A DNA stretch of 64,000 bases, taken from assembly GCA_000004985.1 (NCBI GenBank), contig GG738853.1; one strand, written 5' to 3'. The notes beneath the pieces are model-generated. The model saw only the letters and a program-made list of their open reading frames with translations, was not told where the DNA came from and did no database searches. The stretch is from Naegleria gruberi. Taxonomy: Eukaryota. Each line of letters starts with the position of its first letter. The first letter of the stretch is position 1. This document shows, one piece after another, positions 34,818-55,777 of this stretch. The translations under genes were made by a program, and so were the position numbers.

Positions 34818-34989
34818 CTCGTATTGACAGCTGTTATAATTTCTCAAATTGTCATCTCCAACACTTTCTATTCGAAATGCCTCAACACTTTCACATCCTA
34901 AACTTTTTGTAAACTTTCTTCTTTACAAAATAATATTATTGAATGAAATACAAAAATCAAATTTCTCAATAATAATAATACAAAAAAAA

Positions 34990-37116
34990 ATGCAAAACTC
35001 AAACACAGGCGACACCACATCAACCTCTCATACAACGCTGCCGCAGCCACCATCAAAAAATTCGGAATTTTCCTTCCTCACCAATTCCGATGGTTATTCA
35101 TCAATAGAAGATGAAGAACAATTTTCCAAATTAAAACCAAAACGATATGGTGGAGAGTTGGATGAGGGACATGCCTTTTACTTCTCCGATATGATTGATA
35201 TTATGTCGAAGGAGAAGGATTTGAATAGAAAGTTTTATCGGATGAGAGTTTTGTTGCACGGGAGTAGGGAGAAGAAGGAACGACCATTGTTTCAGCATGA
35301 ATCTGATGTGGTATTGTCGTGGACTTCATCATTGAGGGCTTCGGAGGTGATGTATCGATCAGTGCAAGCTTTTGGCACTGGATTGGAACGTGATTTGCAG
35401 AAATTGGTTGAGTTTGGACTTGTGAATCACTTGTTGATATTTATTACACATGGATATAGATTTAGATTTTGGGATGAGGGAGCTCCTACGAGAGATGATG
35501 TTTCAGTAGATCATTTCCTATATGAACCACGCAATTTTCAAGATATGTCGCTTCACTATCCAATGTATGCTGCAGAAACATTATTGTTAATTCTTAAACA
35601 CTCGGACTGGAATACCTTTTTGGCAATTATGGAACGATACTTTTCTAGTAAGCAAAATGGACCTAGAAGTAGTAAATTAATTAATGATGGAAAGCACACC
35701 ATTATGAATGGTGTCGGTGTATTTTACAAATCATTGAAATATGGATTGGCAGGAATGAAGGAAACTATACTCGTCATTCTCAAAACCATTCACACTCGAT
35801 GCAAAACATTCCAAAAGAATATACTCTACAATACTAAATTCCCACTCATTGAAGCATTGTTTGAATGCATCGATTCTCTGACGCCAGAGAATCTCTGCAA
35901 AGAACTCAGCACTCTTCCAGGTGAAGCTCAAAAGAGGCATTTTGGTAACAGGTTTGACCCTACTACAGAAAGTGGAAAAATTGTAATAGGGTATTGGACA
36001 GAAAATGTTAGAGATTCAATTGTTGATGTTATTGGAATCTTTTTAAATGAAGCCAAGAAAAATGGCAATAGAAAAATGTATTTGGATCCAAAGTATGTCT
36101 TTCCGTGGACTGAGGAAGAAATCAAGGTCAAGCCAGACAGAGCAAACTATAACAAAATATTGCACCGAATGACAGATCTGATTTATCAAAAGCCACTCAC
36201 TGAATTGAAAGTGATACAATATCATTATTGGTTACCTGGAATGTTTTCAAACATGCTATTTGAGAAGGAAGTTTGTGACAGCTCTAATTCCTTGGAACAA
36301 GTGATTGACATTGATTATCAATTATTGGACTTTATTTCAGGAGAGGATGAAATGTTGGACAAGTTGTTTGGCTTTATGAAGAGATTGTATCATGATCCAA
36401 TGTACAAATTGTCAAACTTTCTCGAGTCAACACGTCGCTTTTTGATTGCTCACGATGGAACTGATCATCCATTCGAAATTACACATAATAAGTTCAGACA
36501 TTTGATGGAAATGATAGAGTTATCAATGGTGGATTTACTTTCTTGGATTACATGCAATTCTTTAACAGCTTACAAATGTGTACAATATGATAATCACATT
36601 CTAATGGAGGATTTTCTTAAGCAAGATAACAACTTTACGGAATATTTAAATATGGATGTATTTTCAAAACCTGCTCTTTCATTCCATTCAATACTAGATG
36701 AAACAGAAGGCTACTATTCTATGGGAAGGAATACATGCATTCTCTCCATCATACACAACATGTTCATTGCCGCTCCTGAGCATGCCAATAGGCTGCCGGA
36801 TATACATAACTTGCTGCTTAAAGGTGTAATCGAAAATAAGGATCTGATTAATACTTGTTTTGTGAGTGGCATTAAGAATTATCAAATTGGATTACATGCT
36901 TATATAAGTTTATTTAGAGTGTTTGGAGAGTTAATGGAAGAGTTTGTTGGAAAGGCACAAGTCGATCAACAAAGAGCCATACTTTCTAGTAACATTGGTG
37001 AAATGTGTTTGAGAATTGATAAACATGATCTTGCCGAAAAGTATCTGAAATACTCCCTCAAATATGATCCAAATAACGAAAAGACAAAGAGAAGACTTGA
37101 TAGAGTAAAGAAATAA
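34990..37116 (+). CDS. Hypothetical protein with C-terminal TPR-like helix pair
   Basis: Long open frame (track entry 34849..37116). The first in-frame ATG, at 34990, follows an A-run (caaaaaaaaATG), the same start context seen at other genes here. It terminates in TAA. The C-terminus (LAEKYLKYSLKYDPNNEKTKRRL) is TPR-like. Confidence 0.55.
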   Translation: MQNSNTGDTTSTSHTTLPQPPSKNSEFSFLTNSDGYSSIEDEEQFSKLKPKRYGGELDEGHAFYFSDMIDIMSKEKDLNRKFYRMRVLLHGSREKKERPLFQHESDVVLSWTSSLRASEVMYRSVQAFGTGLERDLQKLVEFGLVNHLLIFITHGYRFRFWDEGAPTRDDVSVDHFLYEPRNFQDMSLHYPMYAAETLLLILKHSDWNTFLAIMERYFSSKQNGPRSSKLINDGKHTIMNGVGVFYKSLKYGLAGMKETILVILKTIHTRCKTFQKNILYNTKFPLIEALFECIDSLTPENLCKELSTLPGEAQKRHFGNRFDPTTESGKIVIGYWTENVRDSIVDVIGIFLNEAKKNGNRKMYLDPKYVFPWTEEEIKVKPDRANYNKILHRMTDLIYQKPLTELKVIQYHYWLPGMFSNMLFEKEVCDSSNSLEQVIDIDYQLLDFISGEDEMLDKLFGFMKRLYHDPMYKLSNFLESTRRFLIAHDGTDHPFEITHNKFRHLMEMIELSMVDLLSWITCNSLTAYKCVQYDNHILMEDFLKQDNNFTEYLNMDVFSKPALSFHSILDETEGYYSMGRNTCILSIIHNMFIAAPEHANRLPDIHNLLLKGVIENKDLINTCFVSGIKNYQIGLHAYISLFRVFGELMEEFVGKAQVDQQRAILSSNIGEMCLRIDKHDLAEKYLKYSLKYDPNNEKTKRRLDRVKK

Positions 37117-37227: not shown

Positions 37228-38496
37228 TTAATGCCAAGATTGATTTAAAATCATAAGCAACAAATCTTGATAATTCCAACCAATTTCTCTAGCAGCAATT
37301 GCAGATAAACTGTCTTGATTGTCTCTATTATCTCTTCCAGGTCCTGTCATGTTTGGTTTCATATTCAAATCAAACATTTTAAACTCAACAGAGTCTGAAG
37401 TTTGGTGAGATCGACAGTCAATTCTAATTGGAGCCTTAGCTTGAACAAGCTCAGCAGCTTTTTCACATGCTTTAATTATCTTTTGGATGGCTTCATCTGA
37501 ATCAAAATCCTTCAATACTACACTATTATTTACAACTGCCACAATACCATTGTATGGAGCAACACCATTTTGATGGTTGAATCTTTTTACAGGTGGAAGA
37601 GCCCAATGATTTGAAAATTCCATTTCTTGAATATCGTACATTATATAATTTCCTGGTGGCATGACAGTCAGTGTCAATTCATCACCATTTAAAAATTCCT
37701 CAACTATAAAATAATAGCCATATTTTGGAACTGGTTTGTTATTCACTTGAATGGTTTGGTTGATTAATTGAGTTGACTTTTCTACAAAACTGTCAAAATT
37801 ATCAACCTTTTCAACTCCTTCACTTCCTCTTCCTCTCACAGGTTTAATAATGAGTGGAAATTCAATACCGTTCTCCCTCAAAGATTCCTCAGATAATTCC
37901 TCCAAAATTTTAATACCTTCCTTATAAAATCCAAGTAATTTCATTTCTTCCAACTTTTCCCTCGTAGAGACAATCAATGAATTAGCAACTGGTAAATTCT
38001 CCTTCTTTAACATTTGATTCGTATCAAACTTGTCATCAAATTGTTGAACCAACTTTGGATGTTGTCCAACAAATTCCACTCCTCTCAAATCCAAACCACA
38101 CCACTCACTCACTTCACATTGACTCTCCACTTGTTTCTGTTGAGCTCTGATCAAATCATGCAACGGATGCTCCTCAAACAATACAGTATTTGCCCAAATC
38201 ACCTTTGCACCCTTCTTCAAACACTCCTCAATACCTTCCTTTGAATCGGGAAAAACCCACTCCAAATCATCCCACAATTTAGCATCATCCACACTCATCA
38301 TCCTAATCAACATATCATGAAGATGCAACATGCCTCTTTGTGGTGTTACAATGGTTCGATTTGCCGCCAATAAATTAAAGGCAATATCAGCGCCCGAATC
38401 CTTGTACCCACCTGGTTTGCACGGCTTGAGAATACCATCAATGGTCGGAGGTTGAATGGCTTGATAGAGAATGGCAATGGGTTGATGTCTTTTCAT
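37228..38496 (-). CDS. ATP-grasp fold enzyme (substrate unknown)
   Basis: 422-aa ORF whose ATG follows an A-run (aaaaaaaATG on the minus strand). The central motif IIKPVRGRGSEGVEKV, together with downstream E/N-rich strands, is typical of the nucleotide-binding core of ATP-grasp ligases. Stop is TAA. Confidence 0.5.
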   Translation of the reverse strand: MKRHQPIAILYQAIQPPTIDGILKPCKPGGYKDSGADIAFNLLAANRTIVTPQRGMLHLHDMLIRMMSVDDAKLWDDLEWVFPDSKEGIEECLKKGAKVIWANTVLFEEHPLHDLIRAQQKQVESQCEVSEWCGLDLRGVEFVGQHPKLVQQFDDKFDTNQMLKKENLPVANSLIVSTREKLEEMKLLGFYKEGIKILEELSEESLRENGIEFPLIIKPVRGRGSEGVEKVDNFDSFVEKSTQLINQTIQVNNKPVPKYGYYFIVEEFLNGDELTLTVMPPGNYIMYDIQEMEFSNHWALPPVKRFNHQNGVAPYNGIVAVVNNSVVLKDFDSDEAIQKIIKACEKAAELVQAKAPIRIDCRSHQTSDSVEFKMFDLNMKPNMTGPGRDNRDNQDSLSAIAAREIGWNYQDLLLMILNQSWH

Positions 38497-39113: not shown

Positions 39114-42100
39114 GTGATTCCGGTCATTCCCATCACAGCCTCCTACTATCGAGATAAGGTTTCCTACTTTAAAGAACAATTGAGAAAGCAGAGATTGTAT
39201 TCCAATCAGACAGCCACTCTCCTTCCTTCAGCTAGTAATTTTGCAGATGATTCATCCTCATCCTTCCAACAACAACAACATTCAACAACTACCTCTCCCT
39301 TCAATCCATCAACAAAGAGATTTATAGGAGGGAATGCATCACCGAATAATGGACCAGTTACCATCACAAAGAAAGGAACTGATAATTCTGTAAATAGTGA
39401 TTTGGATTATTTCGATGATAAGTGGAGTCTCTACAGAGAGTACATTACTCTCCAGAAACAAATTGAGGAAGTTCAACAGGATTCGGATTTGAATTATATT
39501 GAAATGAGAAGGAGAGTCGATTTGGCTCAAGTTTTCAGAGAACATGGAGAATTTTCTGAAGCTTTTATTCAATTAGAACTTGTGGAACAGTCGGCTCAAC
39601 AGAAGGCAGAGAGTGGTGAATTTGATCCAAAAGTTGAGTTGTTACATGCCAAATGTCTGTTTTTACTTTCAATTGTTTTGAAACAAAAGAATAGATCAGA
39701 TGATGCAACAGAATATTTGGAATCTTCAAAGGAAAGAACTGATTACTTGCTCAAAGTAATTTCTCCAGCAAATACTCACAAGGATCAGTGTACTAATTTT
39801 GTTTTCAAATCGGCTCGTTTACTGCTCTCTGAAATTTCCCTGTACAGCTCTGAGGATTTAATTTCACAACAACAAAAGAACTTTCAAGCCCTTCCATTGG
39901 GTCAAAAACTCACCATCAATGAAGAAGCAAATATTGAAAAGATTTTGAGTGAATATCTCATACCTGGCTTGCAGAATGTGAAAATTGTGAGTGGCTCCCA
40001 GAAGGTTACAGTTTCCAATTTGGAAGTTTTCAGAAATTTGTGTTACTACTCTGCTGTTTGTATGATGATGTTGAGGGAAAACAAACTTTCCAAACAGTTA
40101 CTCTCTGTCGCAGAGAATACCTCTCCACTCAAATCAAATGGAAAGAATCACAATAGAAGTGATAGTGACATTTATCTGGAAGCCAATGTGGAAATTGATA
40201 AGAAAATTACTAAACTAGCCATCGATATCAAAATTGCAGAGGAAAAGATGGAAAAGGAAAAGCAAGCATCAACCTCTCAAAAGCACACCTCAAAGAATCA
40301 CAAATTTAAGGATGATAGTGATGAAAGCGACGATGATGCTTGGGATGATTTTGTGCCAACAGGAGCTCTCTCTGGCTTGGCTAAACTAATTCTAGGAGAT
40401 AACAGTGAAGAGGAAGACGCAGATGAAGATCCAATCAGTACTGACATCTTCCCTTCCAAATACAGACTTTTCAAGTCTAGAATTTATAAGGAGGAAGACG
40501 ACAAGTTACCTCAATGTATTTTAACAGACTCGCTGGTGAATCCAATTGGAGTGTCTCCCATGTCACCAGCTTGCAGTAATACATTTAGTAATAGAGAGGA
40601 ATTTAAAAAGTGGATACAACTCTTGAATGCAATTCCAACCAATCCAAATCCTTACACACAAAACATTCCAGTAACAATTTTCGGATATAGTCTTAATGAT
40701 CGATTGCAAATGAATGGTAATCAATTGTGCAGTCTCTACGATAAGCTGATACAGAGCGAGGCATTTACCTCAAAATGGATCAAAGTGTATTTTGAGCTGT
40801 GCACTCGGTTGTACAATGTCAGCTCGATGGAAATGATGATTTCACAACAACAAACAGAAGTTTCTCAACAGGCTCTCTCACTCCAACAAAAATGTGCACA
40901 AATGCTGTTGAACTATTTCAACTTGTTAAAGCAACACAAAACCAAGCATTCTTCAATGTCTTCATCTATTATTTCTGCATCCATGTCTAATATAGATTCG
41001 AATCCAGATATCATGAGCAAATTGAATGATATTTCAGACAAGTTGGTCGAAAAGAAAGCCTTCCTTTTCACAGTAAGTATGGAAATGTTTGCCATTGCAG
41101 GTAGACTCTTCCATCCAGAAGAAGAGGAAATTGGATTTATTGTAGGTGTGTTGAAGGAATGGTTTGGTTCTCAGATAATGTACATTCAATTGGCCAAACT
41201 TCAAGCAACCATCCGATTCCACATGAGATTATTCCGATATGATTGCATGATGCCAATGAAGGAAGAAATTAGAAAAGTCTACGATGAATTACTTAATTTA
41301 TTCGATAATATTGAATCTGCTGAATCATTACCAACTGCCGAGAGTCCACAACCTAATGCTGTCAACCACAGATCATCTGCAAGAAATAATCAAGCTTACA
41401 GTATTGAAAAGCACTATTCTCCAAATCTTTCCACAGTTGCTGCCAAGGTCATTATTCTGTTCCACAGATATCACAACTTTTGGATCACATCTCTGAGAAG
41501 AGGTTCTGCAGATGATGAATGGGCCTACATGCCAGAGCTACCAAAGCACAAACTCTTATCAGATAAGGAAAGATTTTCACTCCTCCTAAGAAAGTATTAT
41601 CCAAAGATTCCTCTCTGTCATACGAAAGCAGAAGTTGCCTATACTGTTGGAAGTTACTGGTTGAGACAACCTAAATCTAAGGATGATAGACAATTGGCAG
41701 AGTGTGTTCTCTTTGAATGTATATATCTGTATTATAAGTTGAGTCAGAGCGTTCAATCTTTTGGTTTTTCATTCATGATTACCAATGATGCTCTAAAGGC
41801 ATTGAAGAAATTTTCAGAGGTTCTCTATGCCAATGACAAGTACGAGTACTCCTCCCTGTGCTATGAAGTCTATGTGAACAATTACAAATTGTTGAGAGGA
41901 CGACACGATTATCAGTTCATTGACGATCTCACATCCGTAACAACGAAACACAATGACTACAAGCACTCTGTCAAGTATTATGAAATTCTCTACGAAAAGG
42001 CAAAGGAAGAAAAGAAGATTCCACAAATTGCCAGACTATCAACAAAATTGGCCAATCTTTATATGGAAAAGGGTGAAGTATTGGAAGCAGAGAGAATTAA

Positions 42101-45100
42101 ATTGGAATCGATTGACTATGCCAAGAGATATGGTACATTGATGGACTATAAGACGGATCTTGAAATTGAGCTGGGCACCTTACTGTTGCAGGGAGGTAAA
42201 TTTGAGAAGTGTATTGCTGTACTTTATAGTGTAGCACAAGAACAGGCCAACAAGAGACACATTGTCTATGAAATTCTATCGAGAGCCTACCTCAAGAAAC
42301 GTTGGTTTGCCGAGTGTGAAGATTCTCTCACAGAAATAGCCAATGTATTGGTAAACTTTTATATTCAATTGAACCAACAACAAGAAATGAGAATTTTGGA
42401 AACTGTGAGCAAGTACTACTTTAAACGTAGCATGTTTGGATATGCACTCGAGTGTGTAAATATTGCCCTCTATAGATGTTCAGGAACATTTGCTGTTCTT
42501 GCCAATCTATTCAAGCTTAAGGGAAAGATTCTGAAATCAATTTGTCAGTACAGCACTCGTCTCTCCTTCCCATGTTCTATTAGTGAATCTACGGAGGAAG
42601 AATTACATCAGCTTGTCACCCAAATAGAACAAACTCCTTCCAATAGAAATAATCTCTATGAAGGTATCAATGAAAATGATTGTTCCTTTGTTTTCAGCAA
42701 GAGGCCAACTTACTACTGCGTTGCACAACTGTTACAGGATTGCATCGACTGTTTCACAAAAGCTGCTGGATACTATGAAGCTTGTTCAAATCAAATTGGA
42801 GAGGCCAAGGTTAATTTGCTAATTTCTGAAACTCTACTTGATTATTTGTTTGTTCCTGTTGCTCTTCTTGGAAAGGATCCAGAGCCATATATCAAGCTCA
42901 AAGAACAGAGTGAGGAAAATAGAAAGAAGAATGCTGATCCTCAACACAGCCAATTCAAACCTATTACACCATTGGACTATCTCGATTTGAATCACATATT
43001 TGCAAACTATATTGAAGCTGCATTGGAAACTTCAGTGGCTGCATGTGATGTCTTTTTGTGCATGAATTCGTATATCACTTCTGCCGAGTGTAAATATTTG
43101 CAAGGCAAAATTTCAAGTGCCAAGAGTTTTTGGTGTGAATGTAGAGATGTTCTTTTCACTCTTTTCATTGATAGTGACTCACATGTGATATTGTCATCTG
43201 GTACTCCACTTGGTGTTATTGAAAAGCTCATGATTATTGTAAAGAGAATGGTTCGTCTCTTGTTCTGCTTTGAACCTGAATTTGTCAATCAACATTTAGG
43301 AATTTTTGATGTATACTATGTAATTGATATTCAATATGAACAGGCAGCTAAAAGATTGCCAACATTTGATGCTGAAAGTGAATACGTCGATAAGGATCAG
43401 CAACATCCATTATCCCTCGAGTATTATAACAATTACTTCTACTCAAATTTGGATAAGATTATTGGAAATAATAAGCAATTATCAGAGGCAGATAAGCAAC
43501 TTCTCATCAAGAACAAACTCTTTGAAATTTTACAAAAGAGAGTGACTGCCACTTCTTCAACCTATTTAACACCTTCACTACCTTCTTCCTTCTCTTCTTC
43601 ATCTCTGAGTACATTGACTACACTTAGAAAGGGTACTCTAAAGAAGTCAGCCTCCATTTCATCCAGCTCAAGTAATGATAAATCAAGCGAAGGATCATTG
43701 GGAAGTGCCACAATTTCACAATTCCTAGATGTTCCAACAACAACACACAAGAAGAGCTCACCATCAGAATTTATCAAACCAAACATGACTCAACTCAAGC
43801 AAAAGATTTTGGAAAGAGTTTTCGGATGTATCTTGACTATGAAGCAAGACAGTAAAAAGTATTCGAATGAAATTCACGACAGACTTAAGGCCAGAAATCA
43901 AGAATGTATGAGAAGATTGTACAATTTAATGAATGCCATCAGAGAGAGTGGAATTTCTATCTCCAAACACAAGAAGGGTAAGAAAGGTGCCTCTACCATT
44001 AATTTCTCAAATGAAGCTCCTTTGAGTCCACTCTTTGCAAAATCTCCACATATTGTCTCGCCAAAACAACGTGAAAGATCCATGTCTGTTGATGCTGGAA
44101 ACACTGGAGGTACTCTGATGACAATGGACTTGCTTCCAGGAGATGTAGAATTGATGGAAATGCTTATCAGAACTGTAAATCTCCAAAAGGGAACAAAATT
44201 GAAAGGAACCATTCAACAAACTATGAATATTCACCTCATCTTGGAAAGAAACATTGCAAGGTATACATCCATTTCACCAGATATTAATTGCCTTGAGGAA
44301 AATTTCAAACTCGTCCAAAAGATGAAACTGTTGGACCAATTGGTCTATGTCTTTTATATTGACAGTGTTTTGATTTTCTACATTCCTAAAGAAGGTAGAA
44401 AGGTTGTCATACCTTTTGGTGGAAGAGATCACGCAATATTGGATGATAAAATTAGAAATGTTATCGATCTCAATGAAAGCCCGGCTACTCCAAGACGAGG
44501 TCAAAACGATTCTGTGGAATTCCTCTCCAATAAGGTATCCAATTGGAGTACAAAAGATTTAGGAAAGGACTTGACTCTCATTGACGATTACTTACTCACT
44601 TTGATAACCAGGAGTGCTCGAGAAAAGAAAACTAAAAAGTTTACTCACGAAGATATTGTCAAGGGATTGAGCAAGGTTCTGAATGCCCAATCAGTATTCT
44701 CATACAAGCCAGACCTTGCTAAATACGAAGAATTCAAAAAGAGTATTTCACTGCTGAACTTTTCCTTCAAACAATTATACACTCAAAAAACAGGAACAAT
44801 CTCAGGTACTTTATCATCAACATTTGGTCGTAAAAAATCTATTGGCTCAATACCAAAACTCGATCAATTACCAACCTTTGATGATCATATTATTCTTCTC
44901 TGTAATAGTTTCCTGAATGTAATACCTTGGGAGCTTCTGTTTGAAGTTAGCTTGACGAGAGTGAATGCTATTCAGTACTTTATTGGAAGAATCAAGAAGA
45001 AGAAATCCAGTGAAGCCAAGATTAGTAGATTCATTGCTTTCTACTCTGAAGATGAAGCCAAATTCATTTTGCCTGCAGAACAAGAAAGAAAGGAATGGAT

Positions 45101-45779
45101 TTTCGAAGATATTCAATGTAAGCTCAACTTTAGAAGATCAAAAACTGCTGGAAGAATTCACAAAGATTTACAAGATATTCCGTTCCACACACCAATCATT
45201 AAGAATGGAAAGAAACCAACCAAGAGTAGCTACAAGAAAAAGTATGAATTTGTTTCATTTATTGAACTTTCCTCGATTGTCAATGCCCAAAACTCAAATC
45301 TGATACGTACCCTCCAAGAAAAGGTTGGCAAAGATGAATTCCCAGTCTTCCTTTTCACATGGTCCGATTTGGCAAACCTCTCCAATATTATTCACTTCAT
45401 CTTTTTGTACATTCCTGATTGCTCTCTGTTATTTGTTCCAGAAATGGATATGAAGAAGTGTGTGAAATATCTCATGATGTTATTGGAAACCTACTTGCCC
45501 CAATTATGCTCATCATCTCCAAAAACTCTCAGTGTTCCAATGATGAATGGTGGTGACAGTACTACACCATCAACACCAAATGGTGAATCAACCAATTCAT
45601 CATCCATTCCACCAGAAAGAAGAAACCTTCACAAATTCTTACTCTTTGCCACCAAACTTCTGAAGGATGAATTCGAAATCCCAACAGCTCTCTTCTTCCC
45701 TCCATCTCTCTATACCAAACCAACTAAAAAGAAACCAAGTGCTTCTTCCTCCTTCTTTGATGTTTCTCCGAGAAGGTAA
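39114..45779 (+). CDS. Very large protein of helical repeats, S-rich linker and C-terminal globular domain (separase-like?)
   Basis: Uninterrupted 2221-codon frame ending in TAA. The N-terminal ~1500 aa read as amphipathic helical repeats. A Ser-rich disordered segment follows (LPSSFSSSSLSTLTTLRK...SSSSSNDKSS). The C-terminal domain contains ...HIILLCNSFLNVIPWELLFEVSLTRVNAIQYF..., which resembles the LPWE(S) segment that precedes the separase protease domain. I could not find the catalytic GHG / GCSS motifs. The track start (39114) is a GTG, and there is no in-frame ATG until about codon 125, so the true 5' end is unresolved. Confidence 0.6.
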   Translation: MIPVIPITASYYRDKVSYFKEQLRKQRLYSNQTATLLPSASNFADDSSSSFQQQQHSTTTSPFNPSTKRFIGGNASPNNGPVTITKKGTDNSVNSDLDYFDDKWSLYREYITLQKQIEEVQQDSDLNYIEMRRRVDLAQVFREHGEFSEAFIQLELVEQSAQQKAESGEFDPKVELLHAKCLFLLSIVLKQKNRSDDATEYLESSKERTDYLLKVISPANTHKDQCTNFVFKSARLLLSEISLYSSEDLISQQQKNFQALPLGQKLTINEEANIEKILSEYLIPGLQNVKIVSGSQKVTVSNLEVFRNLCYYSAVCMMMLRENKLSKQLLSVAENTSPLKSNGKNHNRSDSDIYLEANVEIDKKITKLAIDIKIAEEKMEKEKQASTSQKHTSKNHKFKDDSDESDDDAWDDFVPTGALSGLAKLILGDNSEEEDADEDPISTDIFPSKYRLFKSRIYKEEDDKLPQCILTDSLVNPIGVSPMSPACSNTFSNREEFKKWIQLLNAIPTNPNPYTQNIPVTIFGYSLNDRLQMNGNQLCSLYDKLIQSEAFTSKWIKVYFELCTRLYNVSSMEMMISQQQTEVSQQALSLQQKCAQMLLNYFNLLKQHKTKHSSMSSSIISASMSNIDSNPDIMSKLNDISDKLVEKKAFLFTVSMEMFAIAGRLFHPEEEEIGFIVGVLKEWFGSQIMYIQLAKLQATIRFHMRLFRYDCMMPMKEEIRKVYDELLNLFDNIESAESLPTAESPQPNAVNHRSSARNNQAYSIEKHYSPNLSTVAAKVIILFHRYHNFWITSLRRGSADDEWAYMPELPKHKLLSDKERFSLLLRKYYPKIPLCHTKAEVAYTVGSYWLRQPKSKDDRQLAECVLFECIYLYYKLSQSVQSFGFSFMITNDALKALKKFSEVLYANDKYEYSSLCYEVYVNNYKLLRGRHDYQFIDDLTSVTTKHNDYKHSVKYYEILYEKAKEEKKIPQIARLSTKLANLYMEKGEVLEAERIKLESIDYAKRYGTLMDYKTDLEIELGTLLLQGGKFEKCIAVLYSVAQEQANKRHIVYEILSRAYLKKRWFAECEDSLTEIANVLVNFYIQLNQQQEMRILETVSKYYFKRSMFGYALECVNIALYRCSGTFAVLANLFKLKGKILKSICQYSTRLSFPCSISESTEEELHQLVTQIEQTPSNRNNLYEGINENDCSFVFSKRPTYYCVAQLLQDCIDCFTKAAGYYEACSNQIGEAKVNLLISETLLDYLFVPVALLGKDPEPYIKLKEQSEENRKKNADPQHSQFKPITPLDYLDLNHIFANYIEAALETSVAACDVFLCMNSYITSAECKYLQGKISSAKSFWCECRDVLFTLFIDSDSHVILSSGTPLGVIEKLMIIVKRMVRLLFCFEPEFVNQHLGIFDVYYVIDIQYEQAAKRLPTFDAESEYVDKDQQHPLSLEYYNNYFYSNLDKIIGNNKQLSEADKQLLIKNKLFEILQKRVTATSSTYLTPSLPSSFSSSSLSTLTTLRKGTLKKSASISSSSSNDKSSEGSLGSATISQFLDVPTTTHKKSSPSEFIKPNMTQLKQKILERVFGCILTMKQDSKKYSNEIHDRLKARNQECMRRLYNLMNAIRESGISISKHKKGKKGASTINFSNEAPLSPLFAKSPHIVSPKQRERSMSVDAGNTGGTLMTMDLLPGDVELMEMLIRTVNLQKGTKLKGTIQQTMNIHLILERNIARYTSISPDINCLEENFKLVQKMKLLDQLVYVFYIDSVLIFYIPKEGRKVVIPFGGRDHAILDDKIRNVIDLNESPATPRRGQNDSVEFLSNKVSNWSTKDLGKDLTLIDDYLLTLITRSAREKKTKKFTHEDIVKGLSKVLNAQSVFSYKPDLAKYEEFKKSISLLNFSFKQLYTQKTGTISGTLSSTFGRKKSIGSIPKLDQLPTFDDHIILLCNSFLNVIPWELLFEVSLTRVNAIQYFIGRIKKKKSSEAKISRFIAFYSEDEAKFILPAEQERKEWIFEDIQCKLNFRRSKTAGRIHKDLQDIPFHTPIIKNGKKPTKSSYKKKYEFVSFIELSSIVNAQNSNLIRTLQEKVGKDEFPVFLFTWSDLANLSNIIHFIFLYIPDCSLLFVPEMDMKKCVKYLMMLLETYLPQLCSSSPKTLSVPMMNGGDSTTPSTPNGESTNSSSIPPERRNLHKFLLFATKLLKDEFEIPTALFFPPSLYTKPTKKKPSASSSFFDVSPRR

Positions 45780-45973
45780 AAATACATTCACATTTCAATG
45801 AATCTTTGCATTTTCATTTTGGTACTTTCCACATACATGCTTTTCAATCAATTATCATTATTTCACCATTTTCACCCATATCAATTTGATTGGTATTCAA
45901 TAAATCTTTGTATTCGATTCCATCATGGATTGCGCCAAAATTGATTTGATGATGAAACCTTAATCAAAAAAAA

Positions 45974-48900
45974 ATGCTCAAACATCATACCAGGCGATTT
46001 ATTCTCTCTCGTTGCTCAACGACGGAGAAGATGAATTTGTTATTTAAAATTAGCAATAGTAGTAGTGGATCTTTGTCATCTTGCTGTTCCGTATCATCTG
46101 ATGTGATGAAAAAGTTTAATCATGATGGAAAGTTGTCGGAAAGAACAAGTGGAATGATGAATTTTAGTACAATGCTGTCGAGTCAATTGGCCAAATCGAT
46201 TGAACAACAATATCAAAAAAAGACTCCTATTGAACATGTTTTGGAAAGACCGGATACCTATGTAGGAAGTACGGAGAGGATGAAAAAGAAGTTATTCTGC
46301 TTGGATTCTGTTAATAATATCAAATTGAAGGAAGTTGATTTTATACCTGCATTGTATAGAATTATTGATGAAATTTTGGTCAATGCTGTGGATAACCATC
46401 ATAGAAAAGGAACACATACTAATGAACTGAGAGTCACAATTGATGAAGCAAAAAATTGGATTCACATCCGAAATAATGGCAAGTCAGTTCCAGTGGAAAT
46501 GCACAAGATTGAGAAAATTTACGTCCCTGAATTGGTATTTGGTAACTTGTTGACTGGTTCTAATTTTGATGACAATGAAGTTAAATTCACAGGAGGTAGA
46601 AATGGATACGGAGCAAAATTAGCAAATATTTTCAGTACAGATTTTACTATTGAAATTATGGATCACAAAGGTACACACTATATTCAAAATTGGAAGAAGA
46701 ATATGAGTCAAATTTCAACACCTACCATTGTGGAAAACAAACAAAAAACAGAACCATACATTCAAGTTTCATTCCATCCTGATTTTAAGAAATTCCAAAG
46801 TACTGGACTAAACAAGGAATTGAACATGATCGATTTACTCAAGAGAAGAATTTATGATCTTTCAGCTTGTAATCCAAAGTTGAATGTTTATCTGAATGAC
46901 AAGAAAGTTGAAGTTGATAATTTCAAAGAATATGTGAAATTATTCTATCAAAATAACAGCTCTGGAGAGCATCCAGAAAAGATGTTTGTTCACAAGCATA
47001 TTTGTGATGGATGGGAAATTGCCATAGGAGCATCAGTTGGAGAGGAATTTAATCAAATTAGTTTTGTAAATAGTATTGCCACAGTTCAAGGAGGATCTCA
47101 TGTGAATTTTGTTCTCAACCAACTTTCCACAAAAATCAGCGAATATATTGCCAAGACTTATACAGACCTCCAATTAACAATCTCCCCATATATGGTTAGA
47201 AATCATATCACTCTATTTATTAATTCTCTTATTGAAAATCCTACTTTTGACAGTCAAACTAAGGAAACCCTGACAACCAAGTCTATTTCATTTGCCCAAA
47301 AAGTGGTCATTTCCAATGATTTAATCAACAGTATTGCTAATCATACCCCAATAATTGACAATATTATTGCCTTTGCAAATTATAAGCAATCATCAGCTAG
47401 TTCTAAAAAGTTCAAGAAGAGAGAATCAAAATTATTGATTCCAAAATTGGATGATGCCAACTTGGCCGGAACTAATAGATCTATGGAATGTGTCTTGATT
47501 CTTACAGAAGGTGATTCTGCCAAAGCATTGGCTATTTCTGGTCTCTCTGTTGTTGGAAGAGATAGATTTGGAGTCTTTCCACTCAAAGGTAAATTATTGA
47601 ATGTGAGAGAAGCATCTGCTGACCAAATTAGAGATAATCAGGAAATTCAAAACCTCAAAAAGATTCTTGGTCTCGATGACGTTTCCAAAACTGATTCTTT
47701 CGAAGAATTGACCAAAAGATTGAGATATGGTAAAGTCATGCTAATGTGTGATCAAGATCACGATGGTTCCCACATTAAGGGTTTGCTACTCAATATGATT
47801 CACTTCTTTTATCCTGAATTGTTGAGAAATAATTTTGTGGATGAATTCATTACACCAATCATTAAGGTATCAAAAGGATCTGATGTTAAAAGCTTCTTCT
47901 CCATTCCTGAATTCCAAAATTGGTGGACCAAAGTGCCAGAAAATGAAAAGAATAGATGGAATCAAAAGTATTACAAGGGTCTGGGTACCAATTCTTCAAA
48001 GGAAGCCAAAGATTACTTCTCCAATCTGAAACGACACGTCATTGCACTGCAATATGATGACGATAGTGAACCTAATATTGAATTGGCCTTCTCCAAAGAT
48101 TTGGCAAATGCCAGAAAGTCATGGGTAGCTTCTCTTAAGGATGGAACTTTCCTCGATACAACAAATGGCAAGGTGACCATAACTGACTTTATTAATAATG
48201 AACTTATTCTCTTCTCGAATCAAAACAATATCAGATCTATTCCATCTATTGTGGATGGACTCAAACCAAGTCAACGTAAGATTCTCTTTGCTTGTCTCAA
48301 GAGAGATCTCAAAGATGAAATCAAGGTAGCTCAATTGGCTGGTTATGTCAGCGAGCACAGTGCCTATCATCATGGTGAACAATCTCTGTACGGAACCATT
48401 ACAAGCATGGCCCAAGACTTTGTTGGAGCCAATAATATTCCATTACTGTATCCAAGTGGTCAGTTTGGTACTCGTCTACAAGGCGGTGATGATGCTGCCA
48501 GTGCCAGATATATCTATACTAGATTGAACAAGCTTACACGATTGATTTTCCTCAAGGAAGATGATCAAATTTTGGACTATCAAGAAGAGGATGGTATGAT
48601 TATTGAACCAAAGTTTTATCTTCCAATTATTCCAATGTTGCTTGTCAATGGAGCAGAAGGTATGGGAACTGGTTGGTCTACATCTATTCCATCTTTTAAT
48701 CCAATTGATTTGATTGATTCTTTGAATATTCTTCTTGATAGTAATGCAGAAAATATTGGAAATGTGAAATTACCATCACTTGATATGTGGGCCAGAGGAT
48801 TCAAGGGTAAAATTGAAATGAATGATTCTGGAAAGTTTATCTCCAAAGGTATTTTCAAAATGAAATCTAGAGGTGATTCAATTGAATTTGACATTTCAGA

Positions 48901-49579
48901 ACTTCCAATTGGTGAATGGACAGAAAATTATAAATCACACCTCCAATCGTTGGTAAAGAAGGGTTTAATCAAATCCAAGATTACTGAAAGAAATACTGAA
49001 AATAGTGTAGGATTTACAATTGCAATCAATGATCCTGATGAATTCTCTGAATCACAATTGAAAAAGTTGAAATTAGAGAAATCCTTCTCTCTTTCCAATA
49101 TGACTGTATTCTCTGAAAATTTCGATATTATTCAATTCAGCAATGTGAATGATATTATCAAACAATTCTACTTGGTCCGATTGTCCTACTATCATCAAAG
49201 AAAGAGCCACTTGATGAAACAATTGGAAAAACAAATTAGAATATTATCCAACAAGGTTAAATTCTTGAATTTTATCACTTCCAATGAATCCAATTTGAAT
49301 ACTTTCATCAAGACAAAGAAGGAAAATATTCCTAGCTTCCTCACCAATGTAGTTGGCATTGTGGTTGATCCAACAACAATAGAACAATCCTTCAATTACC
49401 TCACCGATATGAACATTCTCAGCTTGACTCACGAACACAAGGATAGAATTAACAAACAATTAGAGTCTGCCCAACAAGAATTGCAACAAGTCAGCTCCGA
49501 TGATCCAAAGCTAATGTGGAAGAGAGATTTGAAGAGGTTGAGAGATGAACTGACCAAGAGTGAAAACTGGGTCGTTTAA
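45974..49579 (+). CDS. TOP2: DNA topoisomerase II (type IIA), core-only form with N-terminal extension
   Basis: 1201 aa. GHKL ATPase motifs: EILVNAVDN and GGRNGYGAKLANIFS. TOPRIM motifs: LTEGDSAKALAISGL and PLKGKLLNVREAS. Also QDHDGSHIKGL, YKGLGT and the DNA-gate motif DGLKPSQRKILFA. It aligns collinearly with eukaryotic Top2 but ends (TAA) where the conserved core ends. About 75 residues precede the conserved LERPDTYVGS start. The ATG is in an A-run context (tcaaaaaaaaATG). Confidence 0.93.
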   Translation: MLKHHTRRFILSRCSTTEKMNLLFKISNSSSGSLSSCCSVSSDVMKKFNHDGKLSERTSGMMNFSTMLSSQLAKSIEQQYQKKTPIEHVLERPDTYVGSTERMKKKLFCLDSVNNIKLKEVDFIPALYRIIDEILVNAVDNHHRKGTHTNELRVTIDEAKNWIHIRNNGKSVPVEMHKIEKIYVPELVFGNLLTGSNFDDNEVKFTGGRNGYGAKLANIFSTDFTIEIMDHKGTHYIQNWKKNMSQISTPTIVENKQKTEPYIQVSFHPDFKKFQSTGLNKELNMIDLLKRRIYDLSACNPKLNVYLNDKKVEVDNFKEYVKLFYQNNSSGEHPEKMFVHKHICDGWEIAIGASVGEEFNQISFVNSIATVQGGSHVNFVLNQLSTKISEYIAKTYTDLQLTISPYMVRNHITLFINSLIENPTFDSQTKETLTTKSISFAQKVVISNDLINSIANHTPIIDNIIAFANYKQSSASSKKFKKRESKLLIPKLDDANLAGTNRSMECVLILTEGDSAKALAISGLSVVGRDRFGVFPLKGKLLNVREASADQIRDNQEIQNLKKILGLDDVSKTDSFEELTKRLRYGKVMLMCDQDHDGSHIKGLLLNMIHFFYPELLRNNFVDEFITPIIKVSKGSDVKSFFSIPEFQNWWTKVPENEKNRWNQKYYKGLGTNSSKEAKDYFSNLKRHVIALQYDDDSEPNIELAFSKDLANARKSWVASLKDGTFLDTTNGKVTITDFINNELILFSNQNNIRSIPSIVDGLKPSQRKILFACLKRDLKDEIKVAQLAGYVSEHSAYHHGEQSLYGTITSMAQDFVGANNIPLLYPSGQFGTRLQGGDDAASARYIYTRLNKLTRLIFLKEDDQILDYQEEDGMIIEPKFYLPIIPMLLVNGAEGMGTGWSTSIPSFNPIDLIDSLNILLDSNAENIGNVKLPSLDMWARGFKGKIEMNDSGKFISKGIFKMKSRGDSIEFDISELPIGEWTENYKSHLQSLVKKGLIKSKITERNTENSVGFTIAINDPDEFSESQLKKLKLEKSFSLSNMTVFSENFDIIQFSNVNDIIKQFYLVRLSYYHQRKSHLMKQLEKQIRILSNKVKFLNFITSNESNLNTFIKTKKENIPSFLTNVVGIVVDPTTIEQSFNYLTDMNILSLTHEHKDRINKQLESAQQELQQVSSDDPKLMWKRDLKRLRDELTKSENWVV

Positions 49580-49914: not shown

Positions 49915-50832
49915 TTACTTCTTGGTCTTCTTCTTCTTTGATTCGGTTTCTTCCTTATCTTCCTTTTCCTTTTCTTCTTCTTCCTTATCTTCCTTTTCTT
50001 CACCTTCCTTTTCATCAGCCTTTCTCTTCTTACCACCCTTCTTCTTCTTATGTCTTTGACCTGGCTTCAATGGTTTAGTAGTAGTTTCATCACCAGCCAA
50101 GAACTTGAGAATTCTCTTACACATAATCTTCTTGCTACCAGTCTTCTTCAAACCATTTTGCTTGGCAAATTCGACGAGTTCTTCAGCATAGAATTGATAC
50201 AAATCTTCAAAAGTGATACCTTCCTTGATCTTGGTAATATCATTCTTTTCTCTTTCTTCCTTTTCTGGAGTATTAGCTTCAAGGTAATGTGGATATGATT
50301 GACCGATAATTCTATTAACACAAGCCTTCTTGGTACCAGACTTTGAGATCTTCAAAGCATCACAGACATCATTGATGAATTCCTTAGCCATAGCAGTGAA
50401 ACCGAGCTTCAAACCAGTGATCAAGAGTTCTTCCATAACAGCATCAGCCTTTTCTTCCTTTGATGAATCTTCTTCCATACCCAAAGCAGCTAAGAATTTA
50501 GTCAACAATTCAAGAGAACATTCTTGGAAGTATTTAGCCTTATCCTTTTGCTTGGAAAAGTGAGACTTGAATGACTTGGCCAACTTTTGCTTAGATTCAG
50601 ATTCAACCTTCTTGTCCATTTCTTCCAAAGCCATCTTCAAAGCGTCCTTTTCCAATTCCTTGATGAAGGTGGATTCACCCTTCTTTTGAGCATGTTCGAG
50701 AATGGCTTCAACAGCGACCTTCTTGTTGGTCTTCTTTCCCTTGATGTCGTTACCATCCATATATTCCTTGAGGAGATTGAGTGGAATTTCTTCGAGGAGA
50801 GTTTCAATTTCTTTTGGTTCAGAGTCAGACAT
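49915..50832 (-). CDS. K/E-rich nuclear protein with tandem DEK-C-like modules (putative chromatin protein)
   Basis: 305-aa ORF, stop TAA. It repeats ~45-aa modules of the form (T/S)KKxCVNRI / GSKKIMCKRILKFLAG, each preceded by an acidic helix, similar to DEK C-terminal domains. The tail is KKKKGGKKRKADEKEGEEKEDKEEEEKEKEDKEE. Confidence 0.45.
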   Translation of the reverse strand: MSDSEPKEIETLLEEIPLNLLKEYMDGNDIKGKKTNKKVAVEAILEHAQKKGESTFIKELEKDALKMALEEMDKKVESESKQKLAKSFKSHFSKQKDKAKYFQECSLELLTKFLAALGMEEDSSKEEKADAVMEELLITGLKLGFTAMAKEFINDVCDALKISKSGTKKACVNRIIGQSYPHYLEANTPEKEEREKNDITKIKEGITFEDLYQFYAEELVEFAKQNGLKKTGSKKIMCKRILKFLAGDETTTKPLKPGQRHKKKKGGKKRKADEKEGEEKEDKEEEEKEKEDKEETESKKKKTKK

Positions 50833-51713: not shown

Positions 51714-53108
51714 TTAATGACAAACTCTTGGCTGAAAACTTGATAAGTTTCTACAGTCAAATGTCTTTACGTTTGTGTTCATCATAAAAATCGAGCTCTT
51801 TAACAAGGTATCACCAGCATCAGTAAAGTCATTGTAGGAAAGATCCAATGTCTTTAGAGCTGGGAAGGACAATTTGGCAAATGCTTTGATTCCAACATCT
51901 CCAATTAAATTTAAGCCAATCTCGAGAACTTCTAATCTAAAAAGATTTGAGCCTGTTTCATCATTTTCACTGGCGAGTCCTAATAACCCAGTGTCACAAA
52001 TTGCTGGCTTATTGGCATGTAAATTCAATCTTCTTAAATTTTGCAAATATTCTGATTGACCCAAAGCACAGGCACCTTCTGGTCCAATGACATTGTTTTG
52101 CAAGCCAAGAGAGGTCAAGTTTTTGATGAATGGATTATTGGCAAGAGTTTTGGCTCCAGCTTGATCAATTCCACATGAACCAAGTTTGAGAGATTTGATA
52201 TGTTTCAATATTTCACTTCCAACTAGGGCATTTCCTGCAGTGGAACCAATTTCATTTGAAGAAATATCCAATTTGGTCAAATTCTTTACATATTCAGTAT
52301 TAACTAGAGCTAGAGCACCTTCCTCTCCAATATAATTATATTCTACATTCAAAAGTTGTAAATCAGCCATATTTGGTGAATTTGCAATAGCAATCAATCC
52401 TTCATTTCCAATTCTTCCAGAGAATATTTCCAATTTTTTCAATTTGAATGCATTAACAATAGCTTTGGCTCCTTCGGCACCTATCTCACAATAACCCAGG
52501 TTAAGTTCTGTTAGATTTTTCATATTTGGACTGGAGCAAATGGATAATACACCTTCACTTGAGAAATTATTTGCATATACATCCAAAACTTTCAATTGTT
52601 TCAAATTCTCTGATTGGGCAATTAACATGAGTCCTTTATCTTTGATGCTATTTCCTCTTGCTTTCAAAACCTCTAAACTTGGTAAAGAGGATGAAATAAT
52701 TGACATGCTCTTATCATCTAGCTGATTGTAATTAATATTGAGCTCTTTCAATTTTGCAGAATATAATCCAGTAGTAATTCCACTAATATCACCTCCTTTC
52801 AATTGTGAATTATTAATGGTAATGGACTGTATAAAGCAATATTTCAACATGCCATTCGAAGTTTTGGATTTTAAATCTTTGGTAGAGGAAGCCCAAATTT
52901 GTGTCTTCAAACCACAAAACTGCAAAATAATAACTCGCCACTGCCGACACACTTTTGAATAACTTTTGATAAAGTCTTGAAACTCAGCTTCGGAATTGAT
53001 GAAGGAAAATATATGGAGACAAATATCGTTGGAAAATTTGTCATTCGTTGATACGGCCAAGTCTGATAAATCGGTGTGAGCGAGTTCTCTAGTTTGTTGT
53101 GATCCCAT
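51714..53108 (-). CDS. F-box-like protein with RI-type leucine-rich repeats
   Basis: The open frame runs to 53192, but the ATG at 53108 has the A-run context (cctcaaaaaaATG) and is followed by an F-box-like motif (DICLHIFSFINSEAEFQDFIKSYSKVCRQWR). At least 10 repeats of ~28 aa follow, of the form LxxLxLxxNxIGxEGAxAL (ribonuclease-inhibitor/NLR type). Stop is TAA. Confidence 0.75.
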   Translation of the reverse strand: MGSQQTRELAHTDLSDLAVSTNDKFSNDICLHIFSFINSEAEFQDFIKSYSKVCRQWRVIILQFCGLKTQIWASSTKDLKSKTSNGMLKYCFIQSITINNSQLKGGDISGITTGLYSAKLKELNINYNQLDDKSMSIISSSLPSLEVLKARGNSIKDKGLMLIAQSENLKQLKVLDVYANNFSSEGVLSICSSPNMKNLTELNLGYCEIGAEGAKAIVNAFKLKKLEIFSGRIGNEGLIAIANSPNMADLQLLNVEYNYIGEEGALALVNTEYVKNLTKLDISSNEIGSTAGNALVGSEILKHIKSLKLGSCGIDQAGAKTLANNPFIKNLTSLGLQNNVIGPEGACALGQSEYLQNLRRLNLHANKPAICDTGLLGLASENDETGSNLFRLEVLEIGLNLIGDVGIKAFAKLSFPALKTLDLSYNDFTDAGDTLLKSSIFMMNTNVKTFDCRNLSSFQPRVCH

Positions 53109-53282
53109 TTTTTTGAGGTTCTTTGTTATTGGCTTCAGATGATTGACATTTTGTAATCTTATACCAAGTTCGAAAAAAAGAACAAAATTCATCAGGACTT
53201 ATTGAGCAAGACAACAAAAACAAAACACATCCTTGCCAAACAGCTGAATACTGATATGGTTAAATATTTAAGATAAATGTAA

Positions 53283-54591: not shown

Positions 54592-55410
54592 TTATTTCAT
54601 TTCACTTATGTATTTAACTCCTTCATCACCACTTTGACTGTAACCAATATCAAGTGATGTTAATTGCTTCATTTTGCTAATGTATTTGTATCCTTCACCA
54701 CTAATTTCATTGGCAGAAATATCAAGTGATGTTAATTGTTTCATTTCACTTATGTATTTGGCTCCTTTATCACCAATTTGATTATTAGCAATATCGAGTG
54801 ATGTTAATTGTTTCATTTCACTTATGAATTTAACTCCTTCATCACCACTTTGATTGCTACCAATATTAAGTGATGTTAACTGTTTCATTTCACTTATGTA
54901 TTTAGCTCCTTCACCACTAATTTCATTGGCAGAAATATCAAGTGATGTTAATTGTTTCATTTCACTTATGTATTTGGCTCCTTCATCACCAATTTGGATT
55001 ATCACCAATATCGAGTGAGGTTAATTGTTTCATTTCACTTATGTATTTAACTCCTTTATCACCAATTTCATTGTAACCAATATTAAGCGATATCAATTGT
55101 TTCATTTCACTTATATATTTGGCTTCTTCATCACTAATTCGATTTACACCAATATTAAGTGATGTTAATTGTTTCATTTCACTTAGGTATTTGACACCTT
55201 CATTGCTAATTTCATTGTCATAAATATTGAGTGATGTTAATTGTTTCATTTCACTTATGTATTTGGCTCCTTTATCACCAATTTCATTTTCAGAAATGTT
55301 AAGTGATAGTAATTGTTTCATTTCACTTATATATTTAACTCCTTCTACACAAATTTGATTATTAGTAATATTGAGTGATGTTAATTGTTTCATTTCACTT
55401 ATAAATTTGG
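54592..55410. repeat. 72-bp tandem repeat array (~11 units) encoding the LRR units
   Basis: The motif ttaattgtttcatttcacttatgtatttggctcc...tcaccaattt recurs with a 72-bp period (for example ttcacttatg at 54601, 54673, 54745 ...) and with very high unit identity. Confidence 0.85.
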
Positions 55411-55777
55411 TCTGGTTGGTTTTTACTAAAGAGGCAAGCAACCAACGATAAACTTTAACCTTAACAATACTATTCAGGAATTGACTTTTCATGAATAATT
55501 CAACTCGTTTCTCTGTAAATTTTTTTTTAAATTGAATACCAAGTTTTGAGCGTTCCTTGATCACATTAAAGAATTGTTTTGAAATTAAAGAACAATTATT
55601 TAAAATAAACCACGAATCATCAAGCATGGAAATTATTTCAAAACAAACATCATCTGAAAATATTTCTTGTTGAAGTTTCACACTTTTTGATTTCTCTTCC
55701 ATAATATTGTTAATGAATATTTCCTCCGAATTAATGAATTGATGATTTTCTAAATCTTGTCGATTTCGTTTTCTCAT
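54592..55777 (-). pseudogene. F-box-like / LRR protein gene carrying a frameshift in its repeat array
   Basis: Track ORFs 54986..55777 and 54592..55008 overlap in frames that differ by +1. ATG 55777 has the A-run context. The N-terminus has an F-box-like motif (DDVCFEIISMLDDSWFILNNCSLISKQFF), followed by 24-aa LRRs (ISEMKQLTSLNIxxNEIxDxGxKY). At ~55000 the unit reads aatccaaatt-ggtgat where the other units read gaaattagtggtgaa, a 2-nt loss. This is either a genuine pseudogene or an assembly error in the repeat. Confidence 0.65.

Follow-up and report, generated by a model that had tools for sequence, protein, structure and literature searches.

Whether Naegleria gruberi keeps a DNA topoisomerase II (Top2) for its mitochondria, separate from the one that serves its chromosomes, is the question raised by a gene on contig GG738853.1 (assembly GCA_000004985.1). 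In the stretch of 64,000 nucleotides that we analysed (the window), positions 45974-49579 of the plus strand form a single, intron-free open reading frame (ORF) of 1201 codons with an ATG start and a TAA stop. The top database match is the N. gruberi 'DNA topoisomerase II' XP_002680410.1 / D2V5K5 (1135 amino acids), which is 100% identical and whose model begins at Met67, 66 codons shorter than the full ORF. An earlier note, made from the sequence alone, had proposed a candidate organellar Top2, reduced to its conserved core and preceded by a targeting presequence. This proposal is supported by a second TOP2 gene, by the published mitochondrial proteome, by the extension itself and by distance trees, and we conclude that the ORF is very probably the nuclear gene for the mitochondrial DNA topoisomerase II of N. 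gruberi.

A complete type IIA core without a C-terminal tail

The ORF encodes a full type IIA topoisomerase core. Pfam matches to HATPase_c (residues 126-235), DNA_gyraseB (316-479), Toprim (507-619), TOPRIM_C (625-752) and DNA_topoisoIV (754-1186) were all above the curated cut-offs and followed the canonical order. From residue 71 onwards, the protein is collinear with residues 46-1077 of human TOP2B (phmmer against PDB, 923 bits), and likewise with human TOP2A (923 bits) and yeast Top2 (917 bits). Both the domain order and the TOP2B alignment thus bear out the collinearity with the nuclear Top2 core that had been read from the sequence. All catalytic motifs are intact: EILVNAVDN at 133-141, GGRNGYGAKL at 207-216, QTK at 428-430, EGDSA at 512-516, DQDHDG at 593-598, and R845-Y846. 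The predicted activity is ATP-dependent strand passage, with decatenation and relaxation. In an alignment of 14 sequences, these motifs are invariant from residue 236 on; the more N-terminal ones are only nearly invariant because three of the sequences lack that region.

The protein stops where the core stops, as had been claimed. It ends ...MWKRDLKRLRDELTKSENWVV*, 15 residues past the conserved W..DL motif, without a regulatory tail. The missing tail appears to be genuine, since a convergent gene on the minus strand (49915-50832) lies only 335 base pairs (bp) beyond the stop codon. A hidden exon encoding a C-terminal tail was considered and ruled out, because this gap leaves too little room for it.

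A second, tailed TOP2 gene

The organellar proposal came with the expectation that a second, longer TOP2 with a tail would exist elsewhere in the genome, and we found such a gene, so the short protein is not the only Top2 of the organism. The product of this gene, XP_002682923.1 (P0241), has 1457 amino acids (167 kDa) and starts MPPKKKAPAAAPKRKRK, with a lysine-rich, acidic N-terminus. In the published proteome, XP_002682923.1 is listed as 'DNA topoisomerase II' with the start given as MPPKKKAPAAAPKRKRKEESDDE (Horvathova et al. 2021, PMC8134430, Supplementary Data 2). We recovered the full P0241 sequence with a chimeric query consisting of a 399-residue fragment of the long Top2 and the rest of the Andalucia nuclear Top2. 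After the core, which extends to residue 1160, comes a K/E/D-rich tail of 297 residues (55 K, 57 E) with a repeated KPKRGRKPA. Orthologues of the long Top2 are present in N. lovaniensis (1469 amino acids), N. fowleri (1460) and Willaertia (1466).

The short and long N. gruberi proteins are 44% identical over ~1160 aligned positions. The longest contigs recorded for them measure 1,001,995 bp (P0241) and 695,587 bp (short gene), and the two genes therefore presumably lie on different scaffolds. P0241, human TOP2A and TOP2B, and yeast Top2 have the same five-domain core and catalytic residues as the short Top2. The nuclear enzymes differ from it in their charged tail (the 297 residues of P0241), in having I188 and N823, and in lacking two small insertions that are described below.

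Co-fractionation with mitochondria

A published study of N. gruberi quantified proteins across mitochondria-enriched OptiPrep fractions by label-free quantification (LFQ) and clustered them on 376 marker proteins (Horvathova et al. 2021, PMC8134430). XP_002680410.1, the short Top2, is among the 946 putative mitochondrial proteins, where it was placed in functional category 1 (PMC8134430, Supplementary Data 2, Sheet 1) in the company of Twinkle, organellar Pol I, MGM101, SSB and a DNA ligase. It was identified by 20 unique peptides, with 27.7% coverage. Its log2 LFQ values (undetected, 23.4 and 26.1) rise toward the densest, mitochondria-richest fraction, and the corresponding values are undetected, 23.5 and 25.8 for Twinkle and 23.6, 25.3 and 27.5 for organellar Pol I (PMC8134430). 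The enrichment profile of the short Top2 thus matches those of Twinkle and organellar Pol I, and it is steeper than that of the long Top2. The predictors used by the authors, applied to the Met67 model, called the protein nuclear/other (TargetP mitochondrial 10; PMC8134430), a call that we attribute to the absence of the 66 N-terminal residues from that model. Judged by this published fractionation, rather than by microscopy, the short Top2 appears to be located in mitochondria.

The N-terminal extension and the start codon

Ahead of the conserved KSIEQQYQKK, the short Top2 carries 74 residues, in agreement with the roughly 75 estimated before. This extension contains 11 K/R, 3 H, 22 S/T and 4 acidic residues (E18, D43, D51 and E56). 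The statement that it has no acidic residues holds for residues 1-17 and fails for the extension as a whole, in which the first of the four D/E stands at position 18. Met1 is the first possible in-frame start, because an in-frame TGA lies 7 codons upstream. An N-terminus split by an intron was ruled out in N. gruberi, the ORF being continuous.

The context of Met1 is an A-run (CAAAAAAAA-ATG). At least four consecutive A immediately 5' of the first ATG are found in 6 of the 13 long ORFs of the window, so the remark that other genes here start in the same context holds; no A-run context is present at the internal Mets 20, 45, 61, 62 and 67. It seems that such A-runs could be used as a start-site signal when Naegleria gene models are re-annotated. 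Stretches of 4-8 A precede the likely starts of the ORFs at 34849-37116 (+), 37228-38496 (-), 49915-50832 (-), 54986-55777 (-) and 59377-60819 (+).

At this base composition, the probability that a 66-codon extension is open by chance is ~0.008. The frame upstream of the core is open for ~65-93 codons in N. gruberi, in N. fowleri (across a one-base shift in an A-run) and in L002, a heterolobosean-like contig from a JGI metagenome (3300002220); for each of these three sequences, 65-78 stop-free codons would occur by chance in less than 1% of cases. The N. fowleri locus (contig VFQX01000060.1, L001, positions 5631-5990) has a 93-codon upstream ORF that reaches the core but is offset from it by one base in a run of seven A (~5897-5903). 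Reading this run as eight A joins the frame and gives ...TSLEKKSIESIYQRKTP, and the shift most likely stems from a homopolymer error of that assembly. The public N. fowleri model (P0002, 1095 amino acids) lacks the conserved KSIE..YQRKTP..RPDTYVGS start and is probably truncated as well. The L002 protein is 63-65% identical to the short Top2, with at least 65 open codons upstream of its core. Its gene lies in two overlapping frames (2-700 and 643-3636), with a break inside the ATPase domain that represents a frameshift or a small intron.

The start context AATCAAAAAA-ATGCT and an opening of the form ML[KR]..H..[KR]R are common to N. gruberi and N. fowleri. The context of the internal Met16 of N. 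fowleri is AATCAAAAAATGCT, compared with AATCAAAAAAAAATGCT in N. gruberi, and the openings of the two proteins are MLRSFHSKRV... and MLKHHTRRFI... Little other sequence is common to the three heterolobosean extensions, as is usual in presequences. All three do, nevertheless, contain an F-[ST]-[TV] motif near KS[IV]E (MNF-ST in N. gruberi, KRF-TV in N. fowleri and RSF-ST in L002) at equal spacing, apart from one additional residue in L002. This motif is a candidate processing site, at which the presequence may be cleaved.

As a reference for presequence character, we chose 15 N. gruberi proteins with canonical mitochondrial functions from the published proteome of the organelle and used their N-termini, and we devised a composition log-odds score, which was judged only on unpadded controls and on the distribution of background windows. 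Residues 1-30 from Met1 include 6 K/R, 1 D/E and 8 S/T (net charge +5, first acidic residue at 18), which is within the range of the 15 proteins. Residues 2-30 scored +6.3, where the leave-one-out positives had a median of ~+5 and the 99th percentile of the background windows was 6.4. The score was -9.1 when counted from Met67 and -14.9 for the N-terminus of the long Top2. In composition, then, the extension appears to resemble N. gruberi presequences, which supports an import function without being conclusive. Together with the frame that is open in three sequences and with the ATG context and opening found again in N. fowleri, this composition supports the view that the extension is real.

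We infer that translation starts at Met1 (45974) and that the public start is 66 codons too late. If Met67 were nevertheless correct, the 66 upstream codons would be 5' untranslated region, and the protein would either carry an internal import signal or not be mitochondrial. The upstream frame would then have stayed open in three related sequences by a chance of less than 1% each, and the context of Met1 and the first residues would be conserved in N. fowleri outside any coding sequence, which makes a start at Met67 unlikely even though the public model begins there and Met67 has an A at -3. In microsporidia, nuclear Top2s do start only 7-9 residues ahead of this conserved motif; nearly all full-length members of the clade described in the next section, on the other hand, have an extension of 27-345 residues that is basic and hydroxyl-rich. 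The protein co-fractionates with mitochondria, and it is the Met67 form that scores as non-mitochondrial.

A clade of mitochondrial-type Top2s

We aligned 59 Top2s and built neighbour-joining trees from simple corrected distances. Two architectures are apparent in the alignment. In nuclear Top2s, the N-terminus is acidic or rich in lysine and the tail comprises 60-600 residues; the other group combines a basic, hydroxyl-rich extension of 27-345 residues with a tail of 11-47, except in Thraustotheca (tail of 198). The 14 tail-less, N-extended Top2s were split from the 45 nuclear Top2s in 100 of 100 bootstraps. They include the Naegleria short Top2, L002, Andalucia, Acytostelium, Heterostelium, Planoprotostelium, Protostelium, Cavostelium and Thraustotheca; the remaining members are one MetaClust sequence, a protein from an Albugo assembly and two other sequences, environmental or from EukProt. 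Bootstrap support was 99% for the heterolobosean group with its two nearest relatives, and 69% when Andalucia was added. In none of 50 replicates were the short and long N. gruberi Top2s found together. The short Top2 therefore stands with the annotated mitochondrial Top2 of Andalucia and the tail-less Top2s of dictyostelids, outside the nuclear Top2s.

The clade gained ~17 members when 1.84 billion cluster representatives were searched with a profile headed by the 1135-residue annotated model; among these members are a Mucochytrium labyrinthulid cluster, Vermistella and Stephanoeca. Not more than 50 residues follow W..DL in 29 of 31 members of the mitochondrial-type clade. With 146 extra cluster representatives, a clade of the known members excluded all nuclear references in 34 of 40 replicates. 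The exact 33-member clade was recovered in only 1 of 40, because a few borderline sequences shift in and out. When 25 giant-virus Topo IIs were added as an outgroup, the mitochondrial-type clade was recovered in 50 of 50 replicates and the nuclear clade alone in 32 of 50; with this outgroup, the mitochondrial-type clade branches outside the nuclear Top2 radiation in the distance trees.

The clade is also marked by specific characters: V188, R291, N300, T796, P823, D915 and E1035, a one-residue insertion at 457 and a two-residue insertion at 577-578. The N. gruberi short Top2 has six of the seven residues (S replaces T at 796) and both insertions. Asn occupies position 823 in 87% of nuclear Top2s and in 24 of the 25 giant-virus Topo IIs. 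Since the viruses have I188 and N823, as nuclear Top2s do, V188 and P823 are derived in the mitochondrial-type clade.

It is extremely unlikely that the ORF is a giant-virus-derived Topo II, that is, an endogenous viral element in the Naegleria genome. Giant-virus Topo IIs are indeed tail-less (1074-1242 amino acids) and 38-44% identical to the mitochondrial-type alignment, but none of the 25 fell inside the mitochondrial-type clade, and they lack V188 and P823. In 13 of 50 replicates the clade grouped with viral sequences and apart from the nuclear Top2s; around the gene, however, the G+C content (~34%) matches that of the neighbours, and the gene is flanked by ordinary cellular genes (for a SAP-domain protein and leucine-rich-repeat proteins) and is conserved together with its downstream neighbour in the related heterolobosean contig. 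Its product is expressed, having been detected in the mitochondria-enriched fractions.

Members of the clade were found in Heterolobosea, Jakobida, Amoebozoa (dictyostelids, Protostelium, Planoprotostelium, Cavostelium and Vermistella), stramenopiles (oomycetes and a labyrinthulid) and the choanoflagellate Stephanoeca. We take these results as evidence that mitochondrial-type Top2s form one widely spread clade, which reaches beyond the trypanosome and Dictyostelium cases usually cited. No kinetoplastid Top2 was found among the named matches and ten further clade members that we looked up. Individual members are Stephanoeca diplocostata P0414, the Mucochytrium quahogii P0360 cluster, Vermistella antarctica P0410, Thraustotheca P0097 and the Albugo assembly protein P0004.

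Weighing the mitochondrial assignment

Several observations weigh against this interpretation of the short Top2 and its clade. The long Top2, XP_002682923.1, is also in the mitochondrial cluster, more weakly (9 peptides; log2 LFQ 23.1, 23.3 and 24.5), and so is a DNA ligase 3-like protein with weak enrichment (PMC8134430). Because the cluster includes these two proteins, inclusion alone is no proof of a mitochondrial location; their presence would reflect either contamination by nuclear proteins or, for the nuclear enzyme, a small fraction that resides in mitochondria. The maximal hydrophobic moment within the first 40 residues of the short Top2 is 0.45, low within the range of the positive set, indicating weak amphipathicity. 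The candidate cleavage motif of N. gruberi lacks the arginine found in both relatives. The database used in the published proteomics did not contain residues 1-66. In the trees, the mean distance within the mitochondrial-type clade (1.06) is close to that to the nuclear Top2s (1.11), which carries a risk of long-branch effects, and support for the clade vanishes on the slowest third of sites. Long-branch attraction may thus have contributed to the grouping, although the shared derived characters argue against it.

The short Top2 could instead be a tail-less nuclear enzyme, or one dedicated to extrachromosomal circular ribosomal DNA (rDNA) plasmids, and its basic N-terminus would then be a nuclear or nucleolar signal. 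Naegleria rDNA is carried on circular plasmids, and microsporidia and ciliates have nuclear Top2s with short tails or none. N. gruberi, however, already has a full nuclear-type TOP2 with lysine-rich termini, and although that long enzyme leaks into the proteomic mitochondrial cluster, the gradient profile of the short one is steeper and matches that of proteins of the mitochondrial DNA replisome. In addition, the short Top2 shares a clade with the Andalucia mitochondrial enzyme and joined the long Naegleria copy in 0 of 50 replicates, and in composition its N-terminus resembles N. gruberi presequences, from which the long copy, at -14.9, is far removed. We consider a nuclear or nucleolar function very unlikely.

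For the mitochondrial enzyme, we propose the following scheme. Translation would begin at Met1 rather than at the annotated Met67, and the first ~60-70 residues would act as a matrix-targeting presequence, to be removed after import, probably near residues 57-66. The mature homodimer would be an ATP-dependent type IIA enzyme with a GHKL ATPase gate, a Toprim/Mg2+ site and Tyr846 as catalytic residue. As expected from what is known of the family, it would open a transient double-strand break in one duplex and lead a second duplex through it; mitochondrial DNA would in this way be decatenated and relaxed as it is replicated and segregated. The Naegleria mitochondrial genome is circular-mapping. 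Absence of the C-terminal domain, which holds nuclear-localisation and regulatory sites in nuclear Top2, would keep the short enzyme out of the nucleus, and the separate long Top2, P0241, would serve the chromosomes. Gene structure, intact motifs, the paralogue, the published co-fractionation and clade membership are observed; start-codon use, presequence cleavage and the substrate role of the short Top2 are what we infer.

Relation to known mitochondrial Top2s

A mitochondrially localised DNA topoisomerase II has been reported for Dictyostelium discoideum (Komori et al. 1997, pmid 9177484, as cited in PMC2196008). The dictyostelid homologues in our trees (P0075 and P0111) come from species other than D. 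discoideum, and it is on these that the link rests. Like the Naegleria protein, they are nuclear-encoded, N-extended and nearly tail-less, belong to the same clade in all trees, and are accompanied by a separate nuclear Top2; the likeness to dictyostelid amoebae drawn in the earlier note is thereby confirmed for the Acytostelium and Heterostelium homologues only. They are 44-46% identical to the Naegleria short Top2. Their extensions (95-97 residues, with tails of 38-47) are unrelated in sequence to the 74 residues of Naegleria.

Andalucia godoyi, a discobid like Naegleria, has a 'mitochondrial DNA topoisomerase II' (P0021, 1186 amino acids) in its predicted mitochondrial proteome (PMC7050145). 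P0021 has a 36-residue, arginine-rich extension and a 33-residue tail, exists next to a separate nuclear Top2 of 1514 amino acids, and is 46% identical to the Naegleria short Top2. Its grouping with the heterolobosean short Top2s had 69% support as a discobid group and 100% within the whole clade. The location of P0021 was assigned in silico, whereas that of the Naegleria protein comes from fractionation proteomics.

Trypanosomatids have a mitochondrial topoisomerase II (T. brucei Tb927.9.5590) that is separate from their nuclear Top2s and is needed for the topology and segregation of the mitochondrial genome (PMC10719067, PMC6514783). This, too, is a dedicated mitochondrial type II enzyme in a discobid lineage. 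The trypanosomatid enzyme acts on the catenated kinetoplast network, and Naegleria has no such network.

It is well supported that the Naegleria short Top2 joins an already known class of dedicated mitochondrial Top2s. Our results do not overturn current understanding, as such enzymes are established in trypanosomes and reported in Dictyostelium. The mitochondrial fractionation of the short Top2 has already been published, in a supplementary table (PMC8134430), and was not discussed there. What we add is a corrected start, the matching of this gene with its nuclear counterpart, and evidence for a single, widely distributed clade. Our literature search turned up neither a paper on a mitochondrial Top2 of Naegleria nor one on a pan-eukaryotic clade of such enzymes, and mitochondrial paralogues go unmentioned in a 2022 paper that deals with the viral origin of eukaryotic Topo IIA.

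The N. gruberi gene model thereby gains 66 codons with a proposed import signal, and its two TOP2 genes are assigned to two genomes. In N. fowleri, where the orthologue is likewise mis-modelled, the two enzymes matter for drug work, since topoisomerase II poisons would have both as separate targets. The presence of the clade in at least five major eukaryotic lineages bears on the ancestral machinery of mitochondrial DNA replication. It is conceivable, if somewhat short of probable, that a dedicated mitochondrial Top2 was already present in the last eukaryotic common ancestor and that many lineages, such as animals, fungi and plants, have since lost it; the Naegleria gene would then be one tip of this old paralogue. 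Reviews of mitochondrial topoisomerases, as far as they could be searched, do not speak of such an ancestral enzyme.

Feature coordinates and flanking genes

Table 1. Features of the short Top2 gene and its start region (positions in the window)
Feature	Position	Strand	Remarks
In-frame TGA, 7 codons upstream of Met1	45953..45955	+	
Start-codon context CTTAATCAAAAAAAA	45959..45973	+	same AATCAAAAAA-ATGCT context at the matching N. fowleri Met
Short mitochondrial-type DNA topoisomerase II, coding sequence	45974..49579	+	1201 codons plus TAA
N-terminal extension, residues 1-74, proposed mitochondrial presequence	45974..46195	+	basic, Ser/Thr-rich; absent from the public model
Residues 61-66 MMNFST, candidate processing site	46154..46171	+	spacing to KSIE as for N. 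fowleri KRF-TV; L002 RSF-ST one residue further
Met67, start codon of the public model	46172..46174	+	without A-run context
GHKL ATPase domain (HATPase_c)	46349..46678	+	N-box EILVNAVDN 46370-46396; GGRNGYGAKL 46592-46621
Transducer domain (DNA_gyraseB)	46919..47410	+	QTK loop 47255-47263
Toprim and TOPRIM_C	47492..48229	+	EGDSA 47507-47521; DQDHDG 47750-47767
Breakage-reunion domain (DNA_topoisoIV)	48233..49531	+	catalytic Tyr846 in SARYIYT, 48509-48511
Pro823 in NNIPLL, diagnostic of the mitochondrial-type clade	48440..48442	+	Asn in 87% of nuclear Top2s and in 24 of 25 giant-virus Topo IIs
15-residue C-terminus KRLRDELTKSENWVV and stop	49532..49579	+	without C-terminal regulatory/nuclear-localisation tail

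More than half of the window (1-33348) consists of N, an assembly gap or padding, and the real sequence extends from 33349 to 64000. Its G+C content is ~34%, and the surroundings of the Top2 gene do not differ from their neighbours. Upstream, an ORF on the plus strand (39114-45779) comprises ~2100-2200 uninterrupted codons, with the first ATG at codon 131 of the open frame; its product had no Pfam matches.

The convergent gene that adjoins the Top2 stop encodes a SAP-domain protein. It is 75% identical to the downstream neighbour on contig L002, where the local gene order is kept. Direct comparison with N. fowleri gave no similarity for this downstream gene, so the order is kept only with L002. 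Farther downstream lies a pair of genes for leucine-rich-repeat proteins of the LRR_6 type, at 51714-53192 and 54986-55777, both on the minus strand.

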